Part shown: one piece after another, positions 2,121-11,476 of the stretch
How the letters are laid out: the number at the start of each line of letters is the position of its first letter
Numbering within the stretch: position 1 is the first letter of the stretch
Source of the DNA: a virus
Lineage: Duplodnaviria; Heunggongvirae; Uroviricota; Caudoviricetes
DNA length: 11,476 nt
IMG/VR virus record: IMGVR_UViG_2713897055_000005
Reading direction: 5' to 3' (one strand)
Translations under genes and position numbers: made by a program
The notes under the pieces: model-generated
The model's input: only the letters and a program-made list of their open reading frames with translations
Database searches by the model: none
What the model was told of the DNA's origin: nothing

Positions 2121-2210
2121 GCCGAATATTTTGCTGAAAAATGACGTTGGCCAACGCGGACGGATAACACGAAATCCTGCGAACTGGCAAAACCTAAGTG
2201 AATAAAAGTA

Positions 2211-2250
2211 AAAACCCCGTTTGTTGGCAGCAAGCGGGGTTTTGTGTTTC
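2211..2250 (+). terminator. Rho-independent terminator, possibly bidirectional
   Basis: 13-bp stem AAAACCCCGTTTG / CAAGCGGGGTTTT (one G-U pair) with a 7-nt loop, followed by TTTTGTGTTT; an A-run precedes it. It lies between the endolysin stop and the next ORF. Confidence 0.6.
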
Positions 2251-2276
2251 TGACCTTGGATAAGGCAAGGGAGAAC

Positions 2277-2459
2277 ATGGAAAAGTATAAACGAATTCTG
2301 TTGAGGTTGACTATGAAAAACGGCCTTGAACTGAAAGCGCCAGTAACTGATGACATCAGCAGAGCACAGGCTTTTGCTATTAAGTGGGTGGCGGTCGGTA
2401 TCGCTGTGTCTCCGATGCTGTATGGGCTGGCAAAACTGGTCATTGCGTTGAAAGCGTGA
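2277..2459 (+). CDS. Small protein with C-terminal transmembrane helix (60 aa)
   Basis: ATG 2277 with GGGAGA upstream. The track ORF 2244..2459 begins at a GTG inside the terminator T-tract, so the internal ATG is preferred. C-terminus [29 protein letters not shown] is hydrophobic. Confidence 0.4.
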
Positions 2460-2473
2460 AGGGAGGATTAAAC

Positions 2474-2605
2474 ATGTCAGACAAACTCATAATGCTGGCG
2501 AAGATCCTCTGTGTAATCGTCGGCATTTCATTTTCACTAATGCTGGTTGCTCTTTTTCTTTCCATGGGCTGGATGATGTTATCTTCGTCGGGGATGCTGG
2601 GGTGA
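2474..2605 (+). CDS. Small hydrophobic membrane peptide (43 aa), translationally coupled to Rz
   Basis: Strong ribosome-binding site GGGAGGA at 2461-2467, ATG 2474. Translation [43 protein letters not shown]. Its stop TGA 2603-2605 overlaps the Rz GTG start at 2602 (GTGA). Confidence 0.4.
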
Positions 2606-3075
2606 GCATAAACCGAATGCTTTCCGCGTTTACCGTTATTCTGCTGGTGGTCTGTGGTGCGCTTAGTCTGGGGCTGAATCATTACCGCGATAACGCCATC
2701 ATCTACAAAGCGCAGCGTGATAAAAAAGCCAGAGAGCTGGAGCTGGCAAACGCAACCATTACTGATATGCAGGTGCGCCAGCGCGATGTTGCTGCGCTCG
2801 ATGCAAAATACTCGAGGGAATTAGCCGATGCGAGAGCTGAAAATGAAACTCTGCATGCTGATATTGCCGCTGGTCGTAAGCGCCTGCGGATCAACGCCAC
2901 CTGCTCCGGTACCGTGCGTGACGCCACCGGCACCTCCGGCGTGGATAATGCAACCGGCCCCCGACTGGCAGACACCGCTGAACGGGATTATTTCATCCTC
3001 AGAGAACGGTTGATGACAATGCAGAAGCAGCTGGAAGGGGCACAGGACTATATCCGCACTCAGTGCCTGAACTAA
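2602..3075 (+). CDS. Rz: Rz-like i-spanin (inner-membrane spanin subunit)
   Basis: [52 protein letters not shown]...[28 protein letters not shown] closely parallels lambda Rz as I recall it. N-terminal transmembrane segment present. Start is GTG 2602, or alternatively ATG 2617. Confidence 0.9.
2828..3013 (+). CDS. Rz1: Rz1-like o-spanin lipoprotein, embedded in the +1 frame of Rz
   Basis: 61 aa. Signal peptide with lipobox LVVSAC; proline-rich mature part [24 protein letters not shown] matches lambda Rz1. Lies entirely inside Rz in a different frame. Confidence 0.85.
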
Positions 3076-3413
3076 GTTTTGCGGATGCGCCGTATCGTCG
3101 CTGTATTCCCTCATTAACAGAGACCGCAGCCCGACAGGGAGACTCCTCTGCGCGAGTGTGCGGGGATAATCAAAAACGATACACACCGGGGTTTACCGCG
3201 TTAACGGAGCGCGGCGTTGTCCCCTCATGGTCGCTGGTCCGGTGCGATGGTGGAAGAAACCGGACGATGTGTTACCTCGCATGACCTGTTATGTCATGTG
3301 TCTGATTTGTGATTTAAGTCGGATAATTGTCGTTGCCATTAAGCAGAGGATTGATGGCCGACAGGGTGGCATTGTTAGAATAAGACTTATTCTTATCTGT
3401 GCCGGGAATGAAA

Positions 3414-5331: not shown

Positions 5332-6989
5332 TACCTGTGTGGAGCACGGCCTGCCCGGACTGGGCAGAGCGCCTGAAAAAGGGGCTGTCGATTATTCCGG
5401 CCCCGATTTATCCGGATCAGGCTGCACATGCACTGGCGATTTTTAAACAACTGCGGATTGTGGATGCACCGGGCAGCCCGACGTTCGGGGAGTCCTGCGC
5501 ACAGTGGGTGTTTGACCTGGTGGCGGCCCTGTTTGGCTCCTACGATGCGCAGACTGGTGTACGCCATATCAAGGAAGTTTTTATCCTTATCCCCAAGAAA
5601 AACAGCAAGTCCACGCTGGCTGCCGGGATCATGATGACGGCGCTGTTACTGAACTGGCGGCAGGCGGCGGGCTACACCATTCTGGCCCCGACCGTGGAGG
5701 TGGCGGCTAACGCCTTCAACCCTGCCAGGGATATGGTACGACGGGACGATGATCTGGATGACCTCTGTCAGGTGCAGACACATATCCGGACCATCACCCA
5801 CAGGGTGACGGACACCACCCTTAAGGTGGTGGCTGCCGATCCGAATACGGTATCCGGTATCAAGTCCGTGGGGACACTGATTGATGAACTGTGGCTGTTT
5901 GGCAAGCAGTACAAAGCGGAAGACATGTTACGTGAAGCCATCGGCGGGCTTGCCTCCCGTCCGGAAGGATTTGTGGTGTACACAACCACCCAGTCGAATG
6001 AGCCGCCAGCCGGGGTGTTCAGACAGAAACTGCAGTACGCCCGGGATGTCCGTGACGGCAAAATTCATGATCCGCACTTTCTGCCGGTGATATTTGAACA
6101 CCCTCCTGAAATGGTGGAAAGCGGGGCTCACCTGCTGATGGAAAACCTCGCCATGGTCAATCCGAATCTCGGTTATTCGGTGGATGAGGCTTTTCTGTAC
6201 CGGGAGTACCGTAAAGCCCGGGAGGCTGGTGAGGAAGCATTTCGTGGCTTCATGTCAAAACATGCCAATGTGGAAATTGGTCTTGCCCTGCGTTCTGACC
6301 GCTGGGCGGGTGCGGATTTCTGGGAGCAGCAGGGCAGGCGCGTCAGCCTGGACGATATCCTGCAGCGCGCTGATGTGGTGACGGTGGGGATTGACGGCGG
6401 GGGCCTGGATGATCTGCTGGGAATGTACGTGATTGGCCGTGACAGGGAAACCCGCGAATGGCTGGGCTGGGGCCATGCCTGGGCGCATGAAACCGCGGTG
6501 GTCAGACGGAAGAGTGAGGCATCCCGGTTTCAGGATTTTGTGGCCTGTGGAGACATGACGATTGTCCGTCGGGTCGGGGATGACACGGCGGAAGTGGCGG
6601 AGTATGTGCGTCGTATTCATGAGGCTGAGTTACTGGAGCATATCGGTATTGACCCGTCAGGTGTGGGGCAGATTCTGGATTCACTGGCGGAAGCCGGGAT
6701 CCCCGACGGAATTGTTGTGGGGATAAGCCAGGGCTGGAAGCTGGGCGGGGCCATAAAAACCACCGAGCGCAAACTGGCTGAGGGAGTGCTGGTGCATGGT
6801 GGTCAGCCACTGATGGCCTGGTGCGTTGGCAATGCCCGGGTGGAGCCGAAAGGTAACGCCATCCTTATTACCAAACAGGCCAGCGGACGGGGGAAAATTG
6901 ACCCGCTGATGGCGCTCTTCAATGCGGTATCCCTGATGTCCCTGAATCCGGAGCCGAAAAAGAAAGAATATGCGGTTTATTTCATATAA
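5328..6989 (+). CDS. Terminase large subunit (ATPase plus nuclease)
   Basis: 553 aa. N-terminus WSTACPDWAERLKKG...IPAPIYPDQAAHALAIFKQLRIVD and overall layout are typical of HK97/lambda-like large terminases. Position after the small subunit. Confidence 0.9.
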   Translation: MIPVWSTACPDWAERLKKGLSIIPAPIYPDQAAHALAIFKQLRIVDAPGSPTFGESCAQWVFDLVAALFGSYDAQTGVRHIKEVFILIPKKNSKSTLAAGIMMTALLLNWRQAAGYTILAPTVEVAANAFNPARDMVRRDDDLDDLCQVQTHIRTITHRVTDTTLKVVAADPNTVSGIKSVGTLIDELWLFGKQYKAEDMLREAIGGLASRPEGFVVYTTTQSNEPPAGVFRQKLQYARDVRDGKIHDPHFLPVIFEHPPEMVESGAHLLMENLAMVNPNLGYSVDEAFLYREYRKAREAGEEAFRGFMSKHANVEIGLALRSDRWAGADFWEQQGRRVSLDDILQRADVVTVGIDGGGLDDLLGMYVIGRDRETREWLGWGHAWAHETAVVRRKSEASRFQDFVACGDMTIVRRVGDDTAEVAEYVRRIHEAELLEHIGIDPSGVGQILDSLAEAGIPDGIVVGISQGWKLGGAIKTTERKLAEGVLVHGGQPLMAWCVGNARVEPKGNAILITKQASGRGKIDPLMALFNAVSLMSLNPEPKKKEYAVYFI

Positions 6990-7053
6990 CCCTGTTCACC
7001 CTGTAACCATCATGGACCGCTGCGGCGGTTTTTTTTATTTTCAGGAGGCTGAT

Positions 7054-8991
7054 GTGACTCTTAAACGGGCCTGCTCCCTGCTGACGGTGAAATCCTTCAG
7101 TGAGGATGAGCGGGTGATCACCGGGATTGCGTCAACGCCTTCTCCGGATCGGGATGGTGACATCCTGGAGCCGGAGGGCGCGGAGTTTGGCAGTGCGATC
7201 CCGTTTCTCTGGCAGCATGACCATTCCCGCCCGGTGGGGCAGTGTACGGTGCGCCGGGTCAGCGAAGGGCTGGAAATCACGGCAACACTGGCGAAGCCCG
7301 TGCCGGATATGCCATCGCAACTGGCTGCCAGGCTGGATGAGGCCTGGGCGGCCATTAAGACCGGGCTGGTCAGGGGGCTGTCCGTGGGCTTCCGTCCTCA
7401 TGAATACACCTTTCTGGACGGAGGCGGACTGCATTTTCTGCGCTGGGAGCTGATGGAGGTGTCTGCCGTCACCGTGCCCGCGAATGCGGAATGCACCATC
7501 CGGACCATTAAATCTTACGACCGCCAGTTTTCTGCCGCGTCCGGCAACCGGAAACCGGTGGTGAAAATCGCATCTTCTGCCGGCGCTGCGGCACAGTCAA
7601 CAACCGTTTTTCATAAGGAAAAGACCATAATGAATATTGGCGAACAGATTAAAAGTTTTGAAAACAAGCGTGCAGCACTGGCAGCCTCCCTTGAGGAGGT
7701 CATGACCAAAGCCGCAGAGGAAGGGCGCACGCTGGATGTGGAGGAGGAAGAGCATTACGACAACACCGCAGCGGAAATACGTCAGGTGGATGCGCACCTG
7801 AAGCGCCTGCGTGAACTGGAAGCCGGTAAGGCCGCCACGGCGCAGCCGGTGAAACAGGCCGGTAACGGGAATGTGGCCGCGGTGGCTTCTGCGCCGGTGA
7901 TCCGTGTGGAGCAGAAACTGGATAAGGGGATTGGTTTCGCACGTTTTGCCAAATCGCTGGCTGCGGCTAAAGGTGTCCGCTCTGAAGCCCTGGAAGTGGC
8001 CCGTCGTCAGTATCCGGATGACAGTCGTCTGCATCATGTCCTGAAATCGGCAGTGGGCGCGGGGACCACCACGGATCCGCAGTGGGCAGGCAGCCTGTCT
8101 GAATATCAGGAATACGCACAGGACTTTATTGATTACCTGCGTCCTCAGACCATTATCGGGCGATTTGGTCAGGGCGGGATCCCTGCACTTCGTCAGGTGC
8201 CGTTCAATATCCGTGTGCACGCCCAGGTGTCGGGCGGTGCTGCCGGCTGGGTGGGGGAGGGTAAGGCAAAACCCCTGACGAAGTTTGATTTTGAATCCAT
8301 CACCTTCAGTCATGCGAAGGTGTCGGCCATTGCGGTACTGACGGAAGAATTGATCCGTTTTTCCAGTCCGGCTGCTGATGCACTGGTCCGTAATGCGCTG
8401 GCGGAAGCGGTGGTGGCGCGTCTGGATACAGACTTTGTGGACCCGAAAAAAGCGGCGGTGGCAGATGTCTCCCCGGCGTCCATCACCCATGATGTGAAGG
8501 GCACGGCCTCAAGCGGTAACCCGGATGCGGATGCAGAGGCGGCGTTTGGACAGTTTGTTGCAGCAAACCTGCAGCCCACCGGTGCGGTCTGGCTGATGTC
8601 CAGCACCAATGCTCTGGCGCTGTCCATGCGTAAAAATGCGCTGGGTCAGAAAGAATACCCGGACATGACCCTGCTGGGTGGCTCCTTCCAGGGGCTGCCG
8701 GTGATTGTCTCCCAGTACGTGGGTGACCAGCTGGTGCTGGTGAATGCCCCGGATATTTATCTGGCGGATGACGGCGGCGTGGCAGTGGATATGTCCCGCG
8801 AGGCATCACTGGAAATGCAGTCTGAGCCGACCGGCGACAGTACCACGCCGTCGCCGGTGGAGCTGGTTTCCATGTTCCAGACAGGCAGCGTGGCCATCCG
8901 TGCGGAGCGCTGGATCAACTGGCGTCGTCGCCGTACCGCGGCGGTGGCGGTGATTACCGGAGTGAACTATGGCAGTGCGTCCGGCGGCTGA
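7054..8991 (+). CDS. In-frame fusion of HK97-family prohead protease, coiled-coil delta (scaffold) domain and major capsid protein
   Basis: AGGAGG at 7043-7048 then GTG 7054; the track starts at an upstream ATG 6970 that lacks a ribosome-binding site. N-terminal part ITGIASTPSPDRDGDILEPEGAEF...FLWQHD is protease-like. Middle part (MNIGEQIKSFENKRAALAASLEEV...) is helical and delta-like. C-terminal part has the HK97 capsid fold pattern. Internal start ATG 7630 has its own ribosome-binding site AAGGAAAAG. Confidence 0.85.
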   Translation: MTLKRACSLLTVKSFSEDERVITGIASTPSPDRDGDILEPEGAEFGSAIPFLWQHDHSRPVGQCTVRRVSEGLEITATLAKPVPDMPSQLAARLDEAWAAIKTGLVRGLSVGFRPHEYTFLDGGGLHFLRWELMEVSAVTVPANAECTIRTIKSYDRQFSAASGNRKPVVKIASSAGAAAQSTTVFHKEKTIMNIGEQIKSFENKRAALAASLEEVMTKAAEEGRTLDVEEEEHYDNTAAEIRQVDAHLKRLRELEAGKAATAQPVKQAGNGNVAAVASAPVIRVEQKLDKGIGFARFAKSLAAAKGVRSEALEVARRQYPDDSRLHHVLKSAVGAGTTTDPQWAGSLSEYQEYAQDFIDYLRPQTIIGRFGQGGIPALRQVPFNIRVHAQVSGGAAGWVGEGKAKPLTKFDFESITFSHAKVSAIAVLTEELIRFSSPAADALVRNALAEAVVARLDTDFVDPKKAAVADVSPASITHDVKGTASSGNPDADAEAAFGQFVAANLQPTGAVWLMSSTNALALSMRKNALGQKEYPDMTLLGGSFQGLPVIVSQYVGDQLVLVNAPDIYLADDGGVAVDMSREASLEMQSEPTGDSTTPSPVELVSMFQTGSVAIRAERWINWRRRRTAAVAVITGVNYGSASGG

Positions 8992-9035
8992 GTCTGATAA
9001 GGAGGACGGGAGGCGTGTGCCTCCCGTAACAGGTT

Positions 9036-9257
9036 ATGGCAAAGATCCGATATCTGCAGGGCACGCATGATGCCCGGGCCGGGGATATCCGTGATGTGGC
9101 ACAGCCGTGTGCGGAGGTGCTGGTTCGCCTGGGAAAGGCGGAGTACATCACGGTGCGACGTCCGGCAGGTCAGAAAAAGAAACGTGATGCGGAGCATGGC
9201 GAATGTGGAACCTTTTACGGCGAACCCGAAAAAACCAGAAATCAGGACGTGACGTAA
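9036..9257 (+). CDS. Hypothetical small protein (73 aa); doubtful
   Basis: ORF between capsid and portal genes with a weak ribosome-binding site; overlaps the predicted portal start by 55 nt in another frame. No motif recognised. Confidence 0.25.
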   Translation: MAKIRYLQGTHDARAGDIRDVAQPCAEVLVRLGKAEYITVRRPAGQKKKRDAEHGECGTFYGEPEKTRNQDVT

Positions 9258-10567
9258 GAGAGGCGGGCTGGACCAGCCTGTTTCAGGCGGTGGCTGAGCC
9301 CTTTTCCGGCGCCTGGCAGCAGGGCGTGAAAGCCGATCCTGAAGCCGTCCTCTCCTTTCATGCGGTGTTTGCATGTATTTCGCTGATATCCCAGGATATC
9401 GCCAAAATGCGGCTGCGTCTTATGCAGACGGATGCGCAGGGGATACGCAGGGAAACGCGCCGGGGGGATATTGCCCGCCTCTGTCGTCGTCCCAACGCCC
9501 AGCAGAACCGCATTCAGTTTTTTGAACTGTGGCTGAACGCCAAACTGCGTCACGGCAATACGGTGGTGCTGAAAATCCGTAATGCCCGGGGGCAGATCAA
9601 AGAACTGCGTATTCTGGACTGGAACCGGGTTGAACCTCTGGTGGCGGATGACGGCGAGGTGTTCTACCGCATCACGCCGGACCGGAACTGCGGGATCACT
9701 GAGGCGGTGACGGTGCCTGCCCGGGAAGTGATCCACGACCGGTTTAACTGTTTTTTTCATCCGCTTATAGGGTTGCCGCCGGTGTATGCCGCCGGGCTGG
9801 CGGCCACGCAGGGGCATCATATTCAGGAAAATTCGACGTCTTTTTTCAGAAATGGCGGCAGGCCGTCCGGGGTGATTGAGATCCCCGGCAGTATTACGGA
9901 AGAAAATGCGAAAAAACTGAAGAGCAACTGGGACAGCGGGTATACAGGCGAAAATGCGGGGAAAACGGCCATTCTGAGCAACGGGGCAAAATACAACCCC
10001 ACGACGTTTTCACCGGTGGATTCGCAGACGGTGGAACAACTGAAGATGACCGCTGAAATTGTCTGTTCGGTGTTCCGTGTCCCGGCCTACAAGATTGGCG
10101 TGGGACAACCGCCTTCCAGTGACAACGTGGAGGCGCTGGAGCAGCAGTATTATTCCCAGTGCCTGCAGACGCTGATTGAGTCCATTGAACTGTTACTGGA
10201 TGAGGCGCTGGAAACGGGGGAAAACGAGAGTACGGAATTTGATGTCACCACGCTGCTGAGAATGGACAGTGAGCGGCGCATGAAAACGCTGGGGGATGCG
10301 GTGAAAAATACGCTTCTCACGCCCAATGAGGCCCGTAAACGGGAGAACCTGCCGCCCCTGGCCGGCGGTGATGCACTGTATCTTCAGCAGCAGAACTACA
10401 GTCTGGAAGCGTTGTCCCGCCGTGATGCCCGTGAAGATCCGTTCGCGTCGTCCGGTAAAACAGCTTCCGTGCCTCAGGCGGTCGCTGCCTCTGACGGTAA
10501 TAAGGCAATCACTGAAACAGAGCATGATGCGGTGAAGGCGATGTTCAGGGGGATTCTGAAAAAATGA
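9203..10567 (+). CDS. Portal protein (HK97-family-like)
   Basis: 454 aa. The conserved N-proximal region FHAVFACISLISQDIAKMRLRLMQ and overall size are typical of portals. GGAG ribosome-binding site before ATG 9203. Confidence 0.85.
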   Translation: MWNLLRRTRKNQKSGRDVREAGWTSLFQAVAEPFSGAWQQGVKADPEAVLSFHAVFACISLISQDIAKMRLRLMQTDAQGIRRETRRGDIARLCRRPNAQQNRIQFFELWLNAKLRHGNTVVLKIRNARGQIKELRILDWNRVEPLVADDGEVFYRITPDRNCGITEAVTVPAREVIHDRFNCFFHPLIGLPPVYAAGLAATQGHHIQENSTSFFRNGGRPSGVIEIPGSITEENAKKLKSNWDSGYTGENAGKTAILSNGAKYNPTTFSPVDSQTVEQLKMTAEIVCSVFRVPAYKIGVGQPPSSDNVEALEQQYYSQCLQTLIESIELLLDEALETGENESTEFDVTTLLRMDSERRMKTLGDAVKNTLLTPNEARKRENLPPLAGGDALYLQQQNYSLEALSRRDAREDPFASSGKTASVPQAVAASDGNKAITETEHDAVKAMFRGILKK

Positions 10568-11273
10568 ATGAACGTGAACTGTCCATTATCCGTGCGCTGG
10601 GTGAAGAATTTTCCGCAGTGCTGGCGGATTTACAGCGCACATTTGAGGGGAAAATAGCCGCGCAGGCACAAACGTTTGAAGAAAAACTGGCTTCCCTGTC
10701 TGTGGTATTACAGAAGTGCGTGACGGGCGATGATGTGCGTCCGATGCTTGAGCAGATGGTGAAGGAGGCGGTAAGCCATATCCCTGTTCCGCGTGACGGT
10801 CGTGACTACGATCCGGAAGTACTGCAGAAGGCGGTGAATGACGCGGTCGCAAATATTCCACAGCCAGCGGACGGTAAAAGTCTCACCCCGGATGATGTGC
10901 GTCCGATGCTTGAACAGATGGTGAAGGAGGCGGTAAGCCATATCCCTGTTCCGCGAGATGGTCGTGACTATGATCCCGATGTTCTGCAGAAGGCGGTGAA
11001 TGATGCGGTCGCAAATATTCCTGTACCGGCGAACGGTAAAAGTATCACTCCCGATGATGTGCGTCCGATGCTTGAGCAGATGGTGAAGGAGGCGGTAAGC
11101 CATATTCCTGTTCCGCGCGACGGTCGTGACTATGATCCAGATGTTCTGCAGAAGGCGGTGAATGATGCGGTCGCAAATATTCCGCAGCCGGCAGACGGTA
11201 AAAGTATCACCCCGGATGATGTGCGTCCGATGCTTGAACAGATGGTGAAGGAGGCGGTAAGCCATATTCCTGT
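10564..11273 (+). CDS. Protein built from tandem 54-aa helical repeats; 3' end lost in the N patch; absent from the ORF track
   Basis: ATG 10564 overlaps the portal stop (ATGA). 55-aa unique N-terminus, then repeats of DDVRPMLEQMVKEAVSHIPVPRDGRDYDP(D/E)VLQKAVNDAVANIP(Q/V)PA(D/N)GKS(I/L)TP. Copies differ mostly at synonymous positions (CGT/CGA/CGC for Arg), which supports a coding role. Function unknown. Confidence 0.6.
10729..11273 (+). repeat. 162-bp tandem repeat, 3 full copies plus a partial fourth, truncated by Ns
   Basis: Units begin at 10729, 10891, 11053 and 11215 (period exactly 162 bp), with about 90 percent or higher identity between copies, in frame with the CDS above. Confidence 0.85.
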
Positions 11274-11293
11274 NNNNCNTGATGNNCGTNNCN
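11274..11293. other. Ambiguous-base patch marking a probable contig join or assembly artefact
   Basis: Ns at 11274-11277, 11279, 11285-11286, 11290-11291 and 11293. Within 11285-11293 the Ns fall exactly where the repeat unit and the dnaA sequence differ, while shared bases (CGT, C, A) are called. Confidence 0.8.
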
Positions 11294-11442
11294 AATCGAG
11301 GACAAAACGGTTTGGCGCGTACAGGGCCAGCGTGTTATCGCTCAGTTCCGCCTGCAATGGGCGTATCCACATACTGAATTCTGTGGCTGGTAACTCATCC
11401 TGCAATCGGGCAAGACACTGCTGCCAAAGCGAAAGTGACACG
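11294..11442 (-). CDS. dnaA: dnaA 5' fragment (first ~50 codons, GTG start), truncated at the N patch
   Basis: Minus-strand translation [48 protein letters not shown] matches the E. coli DnaA N-terminus as I recall it. The displayed bases carry one extra C near 11400 relative to the frame the ORF track implies, so coordinates here are +/-1. Confidence 0.85.
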
Positions 11443-11476
11443 GCGGACTCCACTCGAACAAAAGTCGATAATGACT

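Follow-up and report, generated by a model that had tools for sequence, protein, structure and literature searches.

SPP1 gp7 binds the portal inside the phage head in a few copies, and MuF domains are sometimes fused to the portal or joined to variable C-terminal domains. Here we describe a protein from the same genomic position, found in a stretch of 11,476 nt from a virus of the Caudoviricetes (IMG/VR record IMGVR_UViG_2713897055_000005), hereafter the window. We use the name X for the protein encoded from the ATG at 10564. X shares with SPP1 gp7/Mu gpF (MuF) a position directly downstream of the portal gene and sporadic fusion to the portal, but no MuF match was found for X in Pfam or PHROG, and X is predicted to be a repeat-built or collagen-like fibre with a beta knob rather than a globular MuF domain. 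X is a positional analogue of SPP1 gp7/MuF without homology.

T4 fibritin (Wac) resembles X in architecture. Both have an N-terminal anchor helix, a stalk of short helices broken by loops, a small C-terminal domain for folding or trimerisation and a gene in the vicinity of the neck genes. No homology between the two was found, however, and X has no foldon but a knob of 140 aa with a CBM5/12-like end; while fibritin attaches to the outside of the neck, X is found fused to the portal C-terminus. The tail fibres of Agrobacterium phages 7-7-1 and Milano and the collagen-like head decoration protein SPP1 gp12 have a G-X-Y stalk, as do many relatives of X, and the last ~50 residues of X match the fold of collagen-like phage fibres with CBM5/12-type tips and of chitinase binding domains. 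Those genes occupy tail or decoration positions and vary with the host, whereas X is tied to the portal gene and keeps a conserved knob from phylum to phylum. If docked at the portal crown, X would also prolong the portal into the head as an elongated oligomer, like the C-terminal barrel of the P22 portal or the T7 internal core. In phages with six G residues at the junction of the two genes (see below) it is literally a C-terminal extension of the portal. The P22 barrel is a 12-helix tube of a podovirus, whereas X is predicted to be trimeric, varies in length, belongs to long-tailed phages and has no sequence similarity to it. If internal, X could be a functional analogue of the P22 portal barrel.

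Gene X downstream of the portal gene

The sequence indicates that X is a polypeptide in its own right, its translation starting at an ATG that overlaps the portal stop codon. The ORF at 9203-10567 matches Phage_portal (Pfam) over residues 54-382 at 1.8e-81. It closes with the codons AAA AAA TGA, and the TGA (10565-10567) forms with the start of X the ATGA overlap that was already recognized in a preliminary description made from the letters alone. From the ATG the forward frame stays open across the whole repeat array, and an AGGGGG motif 11 nt 5' of it is the likely Shine-Dalgarno (SD) sequence of X. Two minus-strand ORFs (10708-11265 and 10586-10861) were set aside as by-products of the repeat; the homologues and the selection both sit in the forward frame.

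In Escherichia coli prophages the junction of the two genes carries either five G residues (G5), as in the window, or six (G6), which fuses portal and X into one ORF. The ORF of X is intact in 55 of 62 complete G5 copies and in 20 of 25 complete G6 copies. The stops and frameshifts within the repeats of relatives that would have spoken for an artefact were looked for, and 75 of these 87 copies proved intact. The pairwise ratio of nonsynonymous to synonymous substitutions (dN/dS) is 0.19 for the knob and 0.28 for the N-terminus among G5 copies, and 0.15 and 0.30, respectively, among G6 copies. X is thus intact in most copies, and the dN/dS values indicate purifying selection in both states.

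With the last 163 residues of the full-length protein as query, a search of 1.84 billion cluster representatives gave 5532 matches at E<=1e-3, 2048 at <=1e-10 and 377 at <=1e-30. Among the best 150 representatives, 139 start with Met, the median length is 310 aa and only 2 have a portal domain; lengths across the family run from 214 to >1200 aa. A genome scan restricted to one genome per species yielded 62 loci from Enterobacterales, Pseudomonas, Burkholderiales, Rhizobiales, Acidobacteria and others. Nearly all have an HK97-type portal gene directly upstream of X and a head-tail adaptor gene directly downstream, and in 52 of the 62 a gene for a fusion of prohead protease and major capsid protein (MCP) precedes the portal gene. 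The window follows this order with its ORFs at 6970-8991 and 9203-10567 and the ATGA at 10564; the adaptor gene would lie past the contig end. In the 49 loci where the junction could be read, X forms an ORF of its own, and its start codon overlaps the portal stop or lies directly beside it (ATGA in 19, TGATG in 8, an 8-nt overlap in 7, a 16-nt overlap in 4), and both frame offsets relative to the portal occur (34 and 15 loci). The Salmonella phage FSL SP-016 and the Rhizobium phage RHph_X2_26 have the same order of two ORFs. The whole module, from protease-MCP fusion to adaptor, is arranged this way in 52-55 of the 62 loci and in the phages BP-4795, FSL SP-016 and RHph_X2_26. Enterobacterial portals end M-(L/I)-R-G-(L/F)-L-(T/K)-K-stop, and the MFRGILKK-stop of the window agrees with this, so the G5 form keeps the ancestral frame. 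Sequence comparison thus points to the two-gene G5 form as the ancestral and normal state, conserved across proteobacterial classes (Entero-, Beta- and Alphaproteobacteria), and to G6 as a derived insertion of one nucleotide.

The family is already present in the databases and is not exotic in sequence. ORF59 of phage BP-4795 (~96% nucleotide identity to the ORF of the window over the shared part) matches phrog_2271, a profile of the fused 859-aa form, and phrog_1289, a stand-alone profile of 331 aa, both at E<=1e-218 (phrog_1289 at 1.6e-218), and phrog_8767 over residues 1-181. Distant stand-alone members match phrog_1289 end to end. Of 5426 complete E. coli genomes, 1246 contain the gene pair, and the median number of places per genome is six. 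The family (PHROG 1289/2271) is very widespread and systematically mislabelled.

In the closest closed genome, E. coli OkiPb01685, the RefSeq annotation of the NCBI Prokaryotic Genome Annotation Pipeline (PGAP) gives portal and X as one "frameshifted" portal pseudogene (locus L263, 2904-5488), and several GenBank records of Stx2 phages (Stx, Shiga toxin) read "portal protein (pseudogene)". According to these labels a portal gene in a decaying prophage was inactivated by the loss of one nucleotide, and the ORF would be its defunct 3' half, and the intact fused 859-aa ORF of phage 2851 seems to agree with them. But the split form is the majority (73 of 103 distinct junction contexts), its order recurs in distant genera and in isolated phages, it retains the ancestral C-terminus of the portal, and its intactness and dN/dS equal those of the fused form. 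BP-4795, an inducible phage, also has the split form. We therefore regard decay of a portal gene as extremely improbable and the label "frameshifted portal pseudogene", judged from these comparisons, as an annotation artefact. Under this label, Shiga-toxin and other lambdoid prophages that are intact appear defective. As proposed in the preliminary description, a genuine gene of its own follows the portal, neither noise nor a dead portal fragment, in view of the intact copies, the selection and the distant loci.

Other labels of the family vary. BP-4795 carries "portal protein" twice, a Hafnia alvei member (P0124, WP_279078520.1) is named "gp6-like head-tail connector protein", and the member in FSL SP-016 is hypothetical. 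Since ORF59, the full-length homologue of the ORF in the window, has no match to Phage_portal or TIGR01537, the name "portal protein" is wrong for X and was inherited from fusion proteins. No Pfam match to a gp6-like connector domain was found in P0124 or in the E. coli protein; the real adaptor is the next gene. The Pfam accession PF28083 is listed on many homologues. Our literature search found no paper that studies X.

Split and fused states in E. coli prophages

The region of the window matches the head modules of long-tailed Stx phages. Among these, the two genes are separate as ORF58 (454 aa) and ORF59 (461 aa) in BP-4795, whereas phage 2851 has a single 859-aa "portal protein". The sole difference at the junction between split and fused forms is five versus six G in TTCAGGGGG(G)AT. 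The 859-aa "portal proteins" of some Stx phages arise, as read from the junctions, by insertion of one G that fuses portal and X. A census of 103 distinct junction contexts in IMG/VR counted 73 G5 (~71%), 29 G6 (~28%) and one GGGGA, and no G4 or G7 tract among them. The ATGA is retained in all 21 E. coli junction haplotypes, and G6 genomes keep the SD and the ATG of X. Most G5 lineages are deep, with at least 16 differences per 565 nt from any G6 copy, and most G6 copies belong to one haplotype. Two flank haplotypes were found in both states. Parsimony on a neighbour-joining tree gives 6-8 changes between G5 and G6, a count that recombination may inflate; the sequences indicate that the state changed more than once. 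Beyond E. coli G6, portal and X are fused in frame in P0158 (1237 aa) and in an acidobacterial locus (L242), and these three fusion lineages arose independently. A one-base polymorphism that splits or fuses a gene with the portal gene is an unusual natural experiment.

Phage phi330 has the G6 junction and forms plaques on K-12 at >1e9 plaque-forming units per ml. Compared with 2851 (L002) over 2.6 kb, phi330 (L083, PV189401.1) shows zero substitutions and one extra 162-bp unit, so the number of repeats changes faster than point mutations accumulate. It also differs by one 2-nt and three 1-nt indels that split its ORFs and are probably sequencing errors in a manually Sanger-sequenced record. 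We did not take phi330 as an independent test of the fused state, as it is of the same lineage as 2851.

SD-like motifs and start/stop overlaps equivalent to those of the window occur throughout the family, and X would be translated by termination-reinitiation, by direct initiation or by both, as such overlaps usually mean. A different account of the junction is that ribosomes of G5 phages make a functional portal-X fusion by a programmed -1 frameshift, or that the G tract is a phase-switching contingency locus. Slippage would occur through tRNA-Gly on G GGG before the rare AUA or through tRNA-Lys on A AAA AAA before the TGA, and the junction peptide predicted for a G5 phage would be ...AMFRGDSEKMNER.... 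The frame of X is indeed -1 relative to that of the portal, positions 10548-10567 hold a slippery-looking GGGGG and AAAAAA TGA, and most G5 haplotypes have the rare AUA after the G run. A switch would likewise agree with the recurrence of both states on near-identical flanks, including the two shared haplotypes, and with the lack of G4 and G7 in the census. However, the portal frame reads AGG GGG AUU CUG AAA AAA UGA, which contains no canonical in-phase X XXY YYZ heptamer, and the window itself has AUU and not AUA after the G run. A tract of 5-6 G is short for a contingency locus, and the depth of most G5 lineages means that switching is rare. At the position of the E. coli G run other genera have AGAGGA or AAGGAG, and their X genes stand in either frame offset and always have their own overlapping start codon, so frameshifting is not a conserved feature of the module. 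Taken together, this makes frameshifting or switching quite improbable as the explanation of the junction, and a programmed -1 shift is hardly a designed feature, given the lack of a heptamer and of the G run in relatives and the use of both frame offsets. Low-level slippage on G GGG or A AAA AAA may still occur.

Predicted structure of X

AlphaFold2 (AF2) was run on the full-length homologue P0049. The model has an N-terminal helix at residues 27-75, which correspond to residues 3-51 of X (49 aa), with a predicted local distance difference test score (pLDDT) of ~90. It is followed by a stalk and by a C-terminal knob with a pLDDT of 97. In the stalk, 17- and 13-residue helices alternate and are joined by 12-residue Pro/Gly/Asp loops at pLDDT 45-60. 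The two short helices per unit with Pro/Gly/Asp-rich loops that the preliminary description had read from the translation are therefore also what the prediction gives.

The knob is a strongly conserved domain of 140 aa with a CBM5/12-like end formed by the last ~50 residues. Modelled alone with 145 sequences, it is all-beta at pLDDT 94.3. Its pattern is GRDA..EILP..KSYPRGTYA.H.GGLWR...GW.C...GDTVTWGGSLWHC...W.LA.KRGRD, it is present in 75 of the 87 complete E. coli copies, and its identity across phyla is 45-65% while the N-terminus varies. In the model, the last ~50 residues adopt the CBM5/12 (chitin-binding-type) fold; conserved W and Y residues of the knob are candidates for surface aromatics that would bind chitin or another glycan. 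A family-profile search of PDB sequences gave weak CBM matches. Structure comparison places the knob next to distal parts of tail fibres, tailspikes and baseplate proteins of contractile injection systems (CIS), and next to binding modules of chitinases; its neighbours in BFVD are phage proteins with collagen repeats and CBM5/12. It had been noted earlier that no domain could be recognized; this holds for the part of X within the window and not for the full protein with its knob.

At least six consecutive G-X-Y triplets are present in 60 of 150 relatives (up to 49; ~33 in an acidobacterial member), where they replace the helical units and run straight into the knob. The E. coli protein has no run of three or more G-X-Y triplets and is not collagen-like in this sense. 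Collagen triple helices are obligate trimers, and from the stalks of the relatives we infer that X is a homotrimer in which the helical units of the E. coli protein would form a segmented three-stranded stalk. By sequence and model, X would be a homotrimeric fibre in which a stalk that varies in length links the N-terminal helix to the conserved beta knob.

Possible role at the portal vertex

X adjoins and overlaps the portal gene invariably and co-occurs strictly with the head module of the protease-MCP fusion, as counted above. We tentatively favour the reading, to which we give slightly less than an even chance, that X is an accessory fibre of the portal vertex docked at the internal C-terminus of the portal. 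X would be made together with the portal through coupled translation, its N-terminal helix would dock at the C-terminal tail of the portal, it would tolerate a covalent tie to the portal, and the conserved knob would bind a host-independent partner. Candidate partners might be the capsid protein, for tethering or nucleation of assembly in a head module without a free scaffold gene, or a cell-wall glycan after ejection. The C-terminal tail of portals lies on the crown side, inside the head, as known from portal structures and from C-terminal fusions to T4 gp20; a covalently fused X must therefore start inside. The fused portal-X occurs in the propagating phages 2851 and phi330, and fusions (29 of 103 contexts) are twice as common as all truncated alleles of X together (12 of 87). 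A conserved knob beside a variable N-terminus fits, on the sequence data, a knob that binds a phage component or a universal structure and an N-terminal helix that co-evolves with the portal.

Alternatively, X might sit on the virion surface as a trimeric neck whisker or collar, or as a decoration fibre of the capsid, whose CBM5/12-like knob binds polysaccharide. It would be anchored by an N-terminal coiled coil or by the knob, and its adjacency to the portal would be gene order only. The stalk varies greatly in length, both across the family and in E. coli (1-7 units), relatives have true collagen-like runs, the neighbours of the knob are tips of tail fibres, tailspikes and CIS baseplates and chitinase binding modules, and the gene directly precedes that of the head-tail adaptor, beside the neck genes. 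Fusions would then be tolerated accidents, in which the trapped copy is inert and free X comes from the internal start; the SD and ATG kept in G6 genomes agree with this. The knob, however, equals portal and capsid in conservation across hosts that range from Enterobacteria to Rhizobiales and Acidobacteria, and a tip that binds the host would not usually be so constant. Fusion in frame, seen in 28% of copies and with at least 6 state changes, is more frequent than all truncated alleles taken together, which speaks against fusion as plain loss of function. The phi330 micrographs come with no mention of whiskers, although such structures would easily escape negative stain. We hold the external position to be somewhat unlikely, though only a little less probable than the portal-docked one.

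Several points weigh against the internal, portal-docked position that we favour. The presence of X in virions and its binding to the portal are inferred from sequence and models; the paper on phi330 has virion mass spectrometry data, and neither its text nor its supplement gives a result for X. To our knowledge, a collagen-like or segmented fibre with a knob of carbohydrate-binding type is the classic design of an external fibre, and none has been described inside a phage head. The AF2 stalk shows no compact packing but beads on a string, from a monomer model of low confidence. The CBM_5_12 score of the E. coli X is 20.3 bits, below the Pfam cut-off of 26.2 (P0135 reaches 31.1, others 18-25), and a fold search with the whole knob gave no match beyond its CBM5/12-like end. 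Several lineages give X a good SD of its own (AAGGAG, 5 nt upstream), so a portal-like stoichiometry is not established. The two propagating phages with the fused form are of one lineage. Fusions may be easy mutational accidents, the genes overlapping by 4 nt beside a G run, and they could be tolerated as free X can start at the retained SD and ATG or as X is dispensable.

In a more far-reaching version, which we consider unlikely, X would represent an undescribed class of virion component: a trimeric fibre, collagen-like or of segmented helices, that long-tailed HK97-type phages anchor to the portal on its inner (crown) face, made in step with the portal by overlapping translation, that tethers or nucleates the scaffold-less protease-capsid fusion on the portal or leaves with the DNA to grip cell-wall glycan, and that a single additional G converts into a covalent portal extension while infectivity is kept. 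X is in any case a conserved head-module component under selection, both in the Stx1- and Stx2-converting long-tailed phages and in thousands of other prophages. The earlier idea of a length-variable structural protein of the head module fits these data.

Repeat array and the 3' end of the window

Tandem Repeats Finder detects in 10729-11273 a period of 162, with 3.4 copies, 91% matches and a score of 922, in agreement with the at least 3.4 copies of the preliminary description. Each unit consists of two 27-aa half-units, a helix and a P-x-P-x-D/N-G-K/R loop. Between the three full units, 11-17 of 162 nt are different but only 2-4 of 54 aa. As the differences are mostly synonymous, selection at the protein level maintains the array, which, as had been proposed, is no fresh duplication; the dN/dS values point the same way. 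The variation in repeat number expected among related prophages was also found, since complete X proteins of E. coli have 245, 299, 353, 407, 461, 515 or 569 aa, which are exact 54-aa steps from one to seven units. A PDB sequence search with the part of X in the window returned designed helical repeat proteins only. Pfam matches to DUF4244 (32 bits, over the cut-off), TetR_C_35, FliG_N and Glycos_trans_3N are short matches to helical half-profiles and were treated as spurious, because repeats inflate scores and the relatives have no such matches or other ones.

The 3' end of X is missing from the window. Positions 11274-11293 contain 11 N, and the readable bases, CCT GTN NNN CNT GAT GNN CGT, encode P-V-x-R-D-G-R, the next repeat motif; the N fall where repeat copies or paralogous prophages differ. 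The following 183 nt (11294-11476) are 100% identical to the annotated dnaA 5' region in 5423 of 5426 complete E. coli genomes. Reading X past 11293 was rejected, as the sequence there is dnaA on the minus strand. The source record is a draft concatenated or mis-joined at 11294 without a spacer, and X lacks a stop codon since the phage contig breaks off within the repeat, where an unrelated one abuts it. The ORF had been thought to be absent from the supplied gene track for want of a stop. This holds, the phage sequence ending there; the treatment of the pair as a frameshifted portal by the NCBI pipeline is a second probable reason.

OkiPb01685 is 99.8% identical to the window over 8800-11273. 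Its X has 407 aa with four units and carries the C-terminal knob, upstream of which the window ends at 11293; the 236 aa of the window differ from it at 2 positions. The array is cut by an assembly break, and nothing points to collapsed copies. The collapse by the assembly that had been suspected finds no support, since this closest closed genome and the window agree as far as the break. Public databases contain hundreds of "partial" E. coli portal proteins that begin or end inside the array, on contigs of 1.6-4 kb, which makes the repeat a frequent breakpoint of short-read assemblies of Shiga-toxin-producing E. coli. Repeats of 162 bp, combined with several paralogous prophages per genome, break such assemblies as they did in the window.

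Feature coordinates and neighbouring genes

Table 1 Features of the junction between portal gene and gene X, with positions in the window
Feature	Position	Strand	Basis
HK97-family portal gene, 454 aa, ends ...AMFRGILKK-stop	9203..10567	+	ORF list; Pfam
AGGGGG with G5 tract at 10548-10552, codes Arg-Gly of the portal tail; likely SD of X	10547..10552	+	sequence
ATGA start/stop overlap, putative site of translational coupling	10564..10567	+	sequence, ORF list
Gene X, 5' 60% only (first ~243 of ~407 codons), ended by the contig end	10564..11293	+	
N-terminal long alpha-helix of X, ~residues 3-51, proposed anchor/oligomerisation helix	10570..10716	+	AF2
162-bp (54-aa) tandem repeat array, 3.4 copies, predicted stalk	10729..11273	+	Tandem Repeats Finder; AF2
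Stretch of ambiguous bases at the contig end, still repeat sequence	11274..11293	+	sequence
5' end of dnaA with upstream DNA, outside the feature; GTG at 11439-11441	11294..11476	-	identity

The ORF at 6970-8991 (673 aa), upstream of the portal gene, joins a prohead protease to the major capsid protein, and a scaffold gene of its own is not seen. A few loci of the genome scan (L229, L236-L238 and L252) have protease and capsid in two ORFs. A 73-aa ORF at 9036-9257 overlaps the portal start by 55 nt and corresponds to the hypothetical ORF57 of BP-4795. Its homologues are detectable in only 4 of 62 distant loci, which makes it specific to the enterobacterial branch.

In the Mesorhizobium yinganensis locus (L262, 2473-4183), a 570-aa ORF has a prohead-protease-like N-terminus that matches residues 32-191 of the capsid fusion of the window, and resembles the knob weakly, at its CBM5/12-like end only. 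This ORF may encode a capsid protein that carries a CBM-like insertion, and not a homologue of X. The Rhizobium phage RHph_X2_26 (L200) has a gene of SGNH-hydrolase type (2169-3383) between the capsid and portal genes, with X also present, and this gene may encode another accessory head protein.

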